A DNA stretch of 64,000 nucleotides from Escherichia coli (GCF_003018255.1 NZ_CP027440.1), one strand, 5' to 3'. Counted from the first letter of the stretch, positions 27,853-30,306 are shown. Notes: a model not told the origin generated them from the letters alone. Program-made: numbers and translations.

Positions 27853-27916
27853 TGTGTCGTCCGTATTGCCGATTTAATATTGAGCATTGCGTAAAAAAAA
27901 TATCACTGGATACATT

Positions 27917-29953
27917 ATGGTACCCTCAACATTTTCTCGTTTGAAAGCCGCGCGTTGTCTGCCTGTTGTTCTGGCAGCCCTGATTTTCGCCGGTTGTGGC
28001 ACCCATACTCCCGATCAGTCCACTGCTTATATGCAGGGCACGGCGCAGGCTGATTCTGCCTTTTACCTGCAACAGATGCAGCAAAGTTCTGATGATACCA
28101 GGATCAACTGGCAATTACTCGCCATTCGTGCACTGGTGAAAGAAGGTAAAACCGGACAGGCGGTGGAGTTGTTTAACCAACTACCGCAAGAACTGAACGA
28201 TTCTCAGCGTCGCGAGAAAACACTGCTGGCGGCAGAGATTAAACTGGCGCAGAAAGATTTTGCTGGCGCGCAAAACTTGCTGGCGAAAATCACACCTGCC
28301 GATTTAGAACAAAACCAGCAAGCCCGTTACTGGCAGGCAAAAATCGATGCCAGCCAGGGGCGTCCTTCCATTGATTTACTGCGCGCGTTAATTGCTCAGG
28401 AACCGCTGCTCGGTGCGAAAGAAAAGCAGCAGAATATTGACGCCACATGGCAGGCGCTCTCCTCCATGACTCAGGAGCAGGCGAATACGCTGGTGATCAA
28501 CGCCGACGAAAATATTCTGCAAGGCTGGCTGGATTTGCAGCGCGTCTGGTTTGATAACCGTAACGATCCTGACATGATGAAAGCTGGGATCGCCGACTGG
28601 CAGAAACGTTATCCGAACAACCCGGGCGCGAAAATGCTACCAACGCAGTTGGTTAACGTAAAAGCGTTTAAACCCGCATCGACCAACAAAATCGCCCTGC
28701 TGTTGCCGCTGAATGGCCAGGCAGCGGTATTTGGTCGCACTATTCAGCAAGGCTTTGAAGCGGCGAAAAATATCGGCACTCAGCCAGTGGCGGCCCAGGT
28801 AGCAGCCGCACCTGCCGCAGACGTAGCAGAACAACCTCAGCCGCAAACCGTGGATGGCGTTGCCAGCCCGGCACAAGCTTCGGTTAGCGAGCTGACCGGT
28901 GAACAGCCTGCGGCCCAGCCGGTACCTGTAAGCGCCCCGGCGACAAGCACCGCAGCGGTAAGCGCACCCGCAAATCCATCCGCAGAGCTGAAAATCTACG
29001 ATACCTCATCACAACCACTTAGCCAGATCTTAAGCCAGGTTCAGCAGGATGGTGCGAGTATTGTGGTCGGTCCGTTGCTGAAAAATAACGTTGAAGAGTT
29101 GCTGAAGAGCAACACCCCGCTGAACGTGCTGGCACTGAACCAGCCGGAGAACATCGAAAACCGCGTCAATATTTGTTACTTCGCGCTTTCACCGGAAGAC
29201 GAAGCGCGCGATGCAGCGCGTCATATTCGTGACCAGGGTAAACAAGCGCCGCTGGTGCTGATCCCACGCAGTTCATTGGGCGACCGCGTAGCCAATGCGT
29301 TTGCGCAAGAGTGGCAGAAACTGGGCGGCGGCACCGTTCTGCAACAAAAATTTGGTTCCACCAGCGAATTACGCGCGGGTGTTAACGGCGGTTCTGGTAT
29401 TGCTTTAACGGGTAGCCCGATTACTCCCAGAGCGACAACCGACTCCGGCATGACGACCAACAATCCAACGCTGCAAACCACGCCAACCGATGACCAGTTC
29501 ACCAATAATGGCGGTCGTGTCGATGCGGTGTACATTGTGGCAACGCCGGGTGAAATCGCTTTTATCAAACCGATGATCGCCATGCGTAACGGTAGCCAGA
29601 GCGGTGCAACGCTGTACGCCAGTTCCCGCAGCGCACAAGGCACCGCAGGCCCGGATTTCCGTCTGGAGATGGAAGGCTTGCAGTATAGCGAAATCCCGAT
29701 GCTGGCAGGCGGTAATCTGCCGTTAATGCAGCAGGCGCTCAGCGCGGTGAACAACGATTATTCGCTGGCTCGCATGTATGCGATGGGCGTCGATGCCTGG
29801 TCGTTGGCAAATCATTTCTCACAAATGCGCCAGGTTCAGGGTTTTGAAATCAACGGTAATACCGGAAGCCTGACGGCAAACCCGGATTGCGTGATTAACA
29901 GGAAGTTATCATGGCTACAGTACCAACAAGGTCAGGTAGTCCCCGCCAGTTAA
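27917..29953 (+). CDS. lpoA: outer-membrane lipoprotein activator of PBP1A
   Basis: ORF track 27887..29953; ATG at 27917 gives [28 protein letters not shown] with lipobox LAGC; TPR N-domain plus Ala/Pro/Gln-rich linker. Confidence 0.9.
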
Positions 29954-30306
29954 CCACCAAACAGACCGGCGATGCGTGGGAAGCACAAGCGCGTCGCTGG
30001 CTGGAAGGCAAAGGACTACGGTTTATCGCCGCTAACGTGAACGAGCGTGGCGGCGAGATCGATCTGATAATGCGTGAAGGCCGGACCACCATTTTTATCG
30101 AGGTGCGTTACCGCCGCTCTGCGCTTTATGGCGGCGCGGCAGCCAGTGTGACCCGCAGCAAACAACACAAATTATTACAGACTGCCCGCTTGTGGCTCGC
30201 GCGTCATAATGGGAGTTTTGATACTGTGGATTGCCGGTTCGATGTGGTAGCCTTCACCGGGAATGAGGTTGAGTGGATTAAGGATGCCTTTAATGACCAC
30301 TCATAA
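29911..30306 (+). CDS. yraN: UPF0102 family protein
   Basis: 131-aa ORF overlapping the lpoA 3' end by 43 nt. Confidence 0.85.

Follow-up and report, generated by a model that had tools for sequence, protein, structure and literature searches.

An alanine- and proline-rich segment of Escherichia coli LpoA is a disordered loop within the C-terminal domain, expanded in enterobacterial lineages

The window analysed here is a stretch of 64,000 nucleotides whose source is Escherichia coli; a 423-nt query taken around the segment under study is 100% identical to strain 104 and matched lpoA in 5,424 of 5,426 complete E. coli genomes. The lpoA (yraM) coding sequence occupies positions 27917-29953 on the plus strand and specifies 678 aa plus a stop, as identified from the ORF list, RefSeq and Pfam. 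The mechanical ORF begins 10 codons earlier at a TTG, and RefSeq annotates the ATG, from which the product is named “penicillin-binding protein activator LpoA” at identical or near-identical loci. The gene lies in its conserved genomic context of rsmI (minus strand), lpoA, yraN and diaA, as read from the ORFs of the window and from RefSeq at matching loci. At the protein level, the Pfam profile LppC (PF04348) matches with an E-value of 1.8e-135 and 453 bits (cut-off 28.8); the match is split into two stretches, the best of which spans aa 350-672. NCBIfam profiles gave no match to the protein. The features of the LpoA/LppC family are present, namely the lipobox cysteine (a lipoprotein signal peptide with lipobox LIFAG/C, Cys27), a TPR-like helical N-domain and a C-domain resembling periplasmic binding proteins. 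According to the literature, LpoA of E. coli K-12 binds and stimulates PBP1A; the allele of the window is at least 98% identical to it in protein.

The domain organisation of the protein can be laid out with some precision. The N-terminal, all-helical TPR-like domain (27998-28684, plus strand, aa 28-256) differs by two substitutions from the solved E. coli N-domain (2MHK, aa 27-256; 6DR3, aa 31-252). An AF2 model built on 115 family sequences (mean pLDDT 87, pTM 0.81) places its helices at aa 47-249 with pLDDT above 90. The true inter-domain linker, K249-K258 (28661-28690), was defined by Jean et al. (2014), whose numbering fits the protein of the window. The C-domain then opens with strand 1 (aa 258-263) and helix 1 (aa 270-286), encoded at 28688-28774 and modelled with pLDDT of about 97, both of which lie upstream of the low-complexity run. 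This opening part aligns to residues 3-37 of the H. influenzae C-domain structure 3CKM, which itself begins at the equivalent of aa 257, and to 5KCN up to residue 259. Next comes a coil at aa 287-356 (28775-28984), with pLDDT values of 32-50 that remain below 50 throughout aa 296-345. It is followed by strand 2 (aa 357-362, ELKIYD, 28985-29002; pLDDT up to 98), the downstream anchor of the loop, which aligns to the VQVFDTS of H. influenzae and in which D362 is nearly invariant among 115 family members. Further downstream, a second flexible insert of the same kind but separate from the first, region 2 (S493-N531, 29393-29509), also described by Jean et al. (2014), interrupts the C-domain. In the model its block-mean pLDDT is 51-72 for aa 501-530, falling below 50 at 510-513, and the flanking blocks 491-500 and 531-540 have values of 94 and 86.

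Within the coil, the low-complexity run proper covers 66 residues (aa 292-357, nt 28790-28987), in frame within lpoA, from AAQVAAAP at nt 28790 to PANPSAE, which ends at nt 28987. Alanine (31%), proline (15%), valine (12%), glutamine (11%) and serine (11%) dominate aa 292-356, and K, R, I, F, W, Y, M, C and H are all absent from it. The Shannon entropy of this stretch is 2.95 bits as against a mean of 3.73 over all 65-aa windows of LpoA, and the minimum among these windows is reached by the one that begins at aa 288. Low complexity at the protein level is thus beyond chance, and the Ala/Pro/Gln-rich peptide pointed out in the sequence-only reading is present exactly, in frame. The span given there, 28800-29012, starts 10 nt late and runs 25 nt into the next beta-strand (LKIYDTSSQ). 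The same reading described the DNA as GC-rich and quasi-repetitive, and only the former description holds. The GC content of 28800-29012 is 62%, compared with 54% for lpoA as a whole and 51% over the window. Only the first and second codon positions carry the excess (0.82 and 0.65 in the segment vs 0.59 and 0.43), GC3 not being raised (0.53 vs 0.58), so the high GC content follows from the use of alanine and proline codons (GCN, CCN). Regarding repetitiveness, Tandem Repeats Finder reported no repeat in 28600-29700 at a minimum score of 30, and exact 8-10-nt repeats are no commoner than in codon-shuffled versions (P = 0.2-1.0); the label “quasi-repetitive” is therefore dropped. The sole repeat-like element of the segment is a pair of degenerate 30-nt units (28928-28987, plus strand), identical at 20 of 30 nt. 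Two 9-nt direct repeats, also on the plus strand, are relevant to the deletions described below: GCGGCCCAG, with copies at 28790-28798 and 28910-28918 (120 nt apart), and GCAGCGGTA, with copies at 28721-28729 and 28952-28960 (231 nt apart).

Comparison with solved structures establishes where the run sits in the fold. The best Foldseek matches to the AF2 model are the crystal forms of H. influenzae LpoA, followed by binding proteins of the LivJ/LivK type, and the model superposes on full-length H. influenzae LpoA. The H. influenzae protein (5KCN, 5VAT, 5VBG; C-domain 3CKM) has the same two-domain architecture with a PBP-like C-domain (Foldseek E about 1e-42). It differs at two points: the roughly 70 residues of E. 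coli are replaced by a turn of about 6 (GNSTIP), and region 2 is much shorter. In a PDB phmmer search, 5KCN aligned to aa 37-291 and then to aa 351-472; its chain runs “...AKGNSTIPV” directly into “QVFDTS”, leaving zero residues opposite aa 292-350. Type I periplasmic binding proteins such as LivJ/LivK, which share the two-lobe alpha/beta fold of the LpoA C-domain, likewise make a tight helix-to-strand turn at this position with no low-complexity insertion, unlike E. coli LpoA. The segment is therefore an expanded helix-to-strand connection in the first lobe of the C-domain, with 35 residues of that domain already upstream of it. Because H. influenzae joins the same two points by a turn of about six residues, the ends of the loop must be anchored within a few residues of each other.

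The segment is, moreover, already known. Jean et al. (Structure 2014; PMC4111904) described region 1 (N285-P351) of the LpoA C-domain as flexible by NMR, regions 1 and 2 being the only two stretches of flexible, visible residues. Both regions lack a counterpart in H. influenzae and both were disordered by IUPred, with values above 0.5 for region 1. The segment studied here consists of the same residues of the same protein, in an allele that differs by a few substitutions, and is in this sense ordinary. The disorder that the sequence-only reading proposed to check is accordingly borne out by the AF2 coil and its low pLDDT as well as by the published IUPred profile, and the entropy minimum and the lack of aromatic and large aliphatic residues agree with a disordered, low-complexity stretch. 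In the literature searched, no later paper testing the function of region 1 and no structure of an LpoA-PBP1A complex was found.

The length of the loop differs greatly across the family. Measured between K284 and L358 in the window's protein, the site holds 73 residues in E. coli and in E. albertii, 64 in an Escherichia-like sequence (86% identical), 76-82 in Citrobacter and Salmonella and 97-144 in Enterobacter, Lelliottia and Pseudescherichia, giving a range of 64-144 for the Enterobacteriaceae overall. (The DNA of P0014, an Escherichia-like protein of 669 aa, returned no megablast match when used as query.) Among 17 clusters labelled Enterobacter cloacae, LpoA measures 715-727 aa, with a constant 604 aa outside the loop, and all the length differences lie in the copy number of QPAA and PA-type units; as these species labels are unreliable, the variation is to be read as strain- or species-level. 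Over 105 full-length representatives (50% identity), the median is 11 residues at the site, and the 18 representatives with 40 or more are among the closest relatives of the window's LpoA. The loop has thus expanded in a lineage-specific manner, at a permissive site.

Within E. coli, the length of the same loop is nearly fixed. Lengths were counted in two evenly spaced samples of ranked matches (40 and 60) and by allele-specific searches among the 5,424 genomes. The span of the query was kept in 39 of 40 sampled genomes with the 423-nt query and in 59 of 60 with a 213-nt query, 98 of 100 in total, and both exceptions are the lowest-ranked row of their respective sample. With small indels still possible in unsampled genomes, and with the lowest identity bands (8-13 genomes) inspected in part, the count of length variants in the 5,424 complete genomes stands at six or more (one of +30 nt and five of -9 nt). 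In the longer one, strain AST85, the first 30-nt unit is duplicated perfectly and in tandem (VSAPAASTAA twice; LpoA of 688 aa). When its own allele served as query, no other genome among the 60 best matches had a span of 453 nt, and the same allele without the duplication occurs in 8 genomes among those matches. The shorter allele, exemplified by strain MS 69-1, has lost 9 nt (AAP codons; LpoA of 675 aa) and is found in 5 genomes.

Further deletions were recovered from a protein collection of 5.8 billion clusters, in which normal E. coli LpoA forms one cluster of 10,877 distinct sequences and deletions that affect region 1 are found in five tiny clusters. These have lost 3 aa of region 1 plus 16 aa of region 2 (P0004), 34 aa (P0006), 40 aa (P0008), 80 aa (P0012) and, in a singleton E. 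coli protein, 77 aa (P0013). Six other singletons have deletions elsewhere in lpoA, so some of the deletion clusters may represent damaged or mis-assembled genes. In the P0008 allele (GCA_006232845.1, a draft genome with an otherwise normal locus), exactly 40 codons (120 nt) have been lost and a single GCGGCCCAG remains at the junction. The 77-aa deletion of P0013 equals the spacing of the GCAGCGGTA pair (28721, 28952), a match made by spacing at the protein level. The mutational routes to a change in length which the sequence-only reading had in mind therefore exist, but E. coli strains very rarely carry their products. Its proposal that linker length could vary between strains is almost wholly wrong for E. 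coli itself and holds between genera and among the proteins labelled E. cloacae. Of the two observations it named as speaking against the proposal, a length perfectly conserved across strains and a structured segment, the first comes very near to what is seen in E. coli and the second does not apply.

Selection on the loop is relaxed but not absent. In a small sample of nine E. coli alleles, three of which were chosen for divergence in the segment (which inflates absolute diversity and should affect the ratio less), regions 1 and 2 have pN/pS values of 0.22 and 0.24, as against 0.035 elsewhere in lpoA. The segment shows no dip in synonymous diversity (pS 0.17 vs 0.10). Cross-genus alignment and E. 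coli polymorphism pick out a conserved island within the loop. This island, at aa 313-328 (28853-28900, plus strand) and ending in [D/E]LTG, follows the motif D-x-V-[AVTI]-[SN]-P-[SA]-x-A-x-[VTI]-x-[DE]-L-T. This motif is found in full-length LpoA of Escherichia, Citrobacter, Salmonella, Enterobacter, Lelliottia and Pseudescherichia, through replacement of its flanks and a two-fold change in length. It also occurs in four more distant representatives, partly degenerate beyond a V-V-S-P-S-A-A core (P0122, P0240). The strict motif failed in 13 of 117 close homologues, ten of them conservative variants (VTSP, VISP, VANP) and three of them deletion alleles, namely P0006 and P0008 of E. coli and P0064 of Salmonella. 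Across the nine E. coli alleles, 1 of 16 island codons is amino-acid-polymorphic and 5 are polymorphic at synonymous sites only, the corresponding figures for the flanks being 17 and 14 of 44 codons. The sole amino-acid polymorphism of the island is the window's own D325E; the eight other alleles and the other aligned E. coli sequences have D325. Similarly conserved is ANPSAE, the last residues before strand 2. A short conserved stretch between unconserved disordered flanks is the pattern of a short linear motif, and the island fits it. The island was not found described in the literature searched. The AF2 monomer shows no rise in confidence over it (pLDDT about 32-40), and intramolecular docking of the island was left without support on that account.

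Taken together, these data make it highly probable that the segment is the disordered region 1 loop inside the C-domain, an expansion, confined to Enterobacterales and close relatives, of the connection (typically 6-12 residues) between helix 1 and strand 2, and that it would serve for the most part as a tolerated spacer. Most of the loop would be under weak constraint and its length would drift, presumably through duplication and loss of small peptide units and through deletion between short direct repeats. A specific contact would be likely only for the island and the ANPSAE end.

A stricter version of this view, in which the whole loop, island included, is neutral filler at a permissive surface site and the island is conserved merely by shared ancestry over a short time, is a possibility of some substance, though an unlikely one. 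Most of the family does without the loop, its flanks cannot be aligned between genera, its pN/pS is six-fold above that of the rest of the gene, the AF2 model finds no structure in it, and natural in-frame deletions of 34-42 residues in E. coli and Salmonella take the island with them. Nevertheless, a pN/pS of 0.22 is still well below 1, and each of the large deletions is a singleton in a set of some 10,900 distinct LpoA sequences from E. coli. Furthermore, the V, S, P and A of the island are invariant and its D/E-L-T nearly so despite the replacement of the flanks around them, which is hard to square with uniform neutrality.

The sequence-only reading took the segment for a linker that joins the TPR-like N-domain to the C-domain and whose length could alter how far LpoA reaches across the periplasm. 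On this view it would be a flexible tether tuning the reach from the outer membrane to PBP1A, much as LpoB uses its disordered N-terminus. Disorder, low complexity and the large differences in length between genera are all compatible with this idea, and LpoB is reported in a review to span the periplasm with a long disordered region. LpoB, the activator of PBP1B, is likewise a lipoprotein of the outer membrane that activates a class A PBP and has a Pro-rich, disordered N-terminal region, but its stretch connects the lipid anchor to the globular domain and gives a reach of up to about 145 A. The LpoA loop, in contrast, leaves and re-enters a folded domain within one and the same lobe and is unable to serve as a tether. 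The N-domain ends at aa 256 and 35 residues of C-domain fold (strand 258-263 and helix 270-286) precede the segment, with strand 357-362 following it, so that the proposed separation of the two domains does not stand. H. influenzae LpoA keeps the same two-domain architecture with zero residues at the site, and within E. coli the length is close to fixed. As both ends lie side by side in one lobe, the loop adds nothing to the end-to-end length of LpoA. Published NMR, AUC and SAXS data instead find the linker K249-K258 rather rigid and LpoA elongated, at about 145 A, and place the reach in this stiff two-domain body (PMC4111904). The loop is thus not what allows LpoA to bridge the periplasm, and a tether role for it is very improbable.

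Still less credit can be given to a contingency or VNTR locus, at which tandem copy-number switching would generate strain or phase variation of a surface-associated lipoprotein. The perfect 30-nt duplication of AST85 and the varying numbers of QPAA and PA-type units in Enterobacter are of the kind that such a locus would produce. Against it, the segment contains no tandem repeat detectable by TRF and its short repeats are at the level of codon shuffles, while the length variants of E. coli amount to at least six in 5,424 complete genomes and frequent variation holds in the proteins labelled E. cloacae, that is, in another genus. LpoA, moreover, faces the periplasm and not the cell surface, which also counts against this interpretation.

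An origin of the composition outside LpoA is scarcely credible, whether in an antisense gene (an antisense ORF of 79 codons does overlap, at 28637-28876), in a structured RNA or in DNA acquired horizontally (GC is locally raised). Against it stand the undiminished synonymous diversity, the unraised GC3, an Rfam scan of lpoA whose single match lies elsewhere in the gene at chance level (E=0.26), and the presence of the segment in frame in the lpoA of every matching genome (5,424/5,426).

To the published description of region 1, the present analysis adds statistics on loop length in the population and across the family, the routes by which that length mutates, and the conserved island. The structural interpretation is corrected to a loop and not a tether, and otherwise the finding matters little. 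There is a slim chance that the island is a short linear docking motif on a flexible leash, in which case its target may be PBP1A (through its ODD domain), the conserved grooves in the TPR-like N-domain of LpoA itself or some other peptidoglycan enzyme, and the variable flanks would just set the capture radius. It is not indispensable for viability (with PBP1B-LpoB presumably present), since natural alleles that delete it exist. The island together with the rare natural deletion alleles provides a cheap and concrete handle on the role of the enterobacterial LpoA inserts; if the docking interpretation were true, the island would give LpoA of the Enterobacteriaceae a regulatory contact that is absent from LpoA of the H. 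influenzae type.

Within the disordered loop of the LpoA C-domain (region 1, N285-P351; Jean et al., 2014), an island of twelve residues followed by [D/E]LTG (window 28853-28900, aa 313-328) is retained in at least six enterobacterial genera; its flanks vary in both length and sequence, and the loop around it is otherwise fast-evolving. At residue 325, the window allele carries E, whereas D is found in all eight of the other E. coli alleles compared, as well as in the remaining E. coli sequences of the protein alignment. The second flexible C-domain insert described by Jean et al. (region 2, S493-N531; window 29393-29509, aa 493-531) is under similarly relaxed constraint (pN/pS of 0.24). In contrast to region 1, region 2 hardly varies in length: among 120 close homologues, 52-53 residues lie between its fixed anchors. 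In P0004 and P0011, both rare clusters of E. coli proteins, 16 residues of this insert are missing.

At the DNA level, two perfect 9-nt direct repeat pairs are present, one at window 28790-28798 and 28910-28918 (spacing 120 nt) and the other at 28721-28729 and 28952-28960 (spacing 231 nt). Both spacings are exact multiples of three and correspond in size to naturally occurring in-frame deletions (40 and 77 codons, respectively) carried by E. coli LpoA sequences that are singletons. The junction of the 120-nt deletion was confirmed in the DNA of the E. coli draft genome GCA_006232845.1 (locus L011).

With respect to the gene ends, the lpoA frame remains open for 10 further codons in the 5' direction, up to a TTG (window 27887-27916), while the RefSeq start (ATG at 27917) yields a normal lipoprotein signal peptide with the lipobox LIFAG↓C27. 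The 3' end of lpoA shares 43 nt (29911-29953) with the yraN ORF (29911-30306) in a different frame, and the overlap is annotated identically in every RefSeq locus fetched. Comparison of the LpoA protein (window 27917-29950) with NCBIfam release 20 returned no family at E <= 0.01; RefSeq naming is consistent despite this blank and presumably has a source outside the NCBIfam HMMs. On the minus strand (28257-28325), Rfam gives a weak match to the flavivirus frameshift element, at 19 bits where the gathering score is 43 (E=0.26); this was judged to be a chance hit.

In proteins labelled Enterobacter cloacae (clusters P0081-P0120), LpoA measures 715, 719, 723 or 727 aa. All of these length differences reside in region 1, as QPAA and PA-rich units varying in copy number, and the remainder of the protein is fixed at 604 aa. 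Enterobacter has a strain- or species-level LpoA length polymorphism that is almost absent from E. coli.
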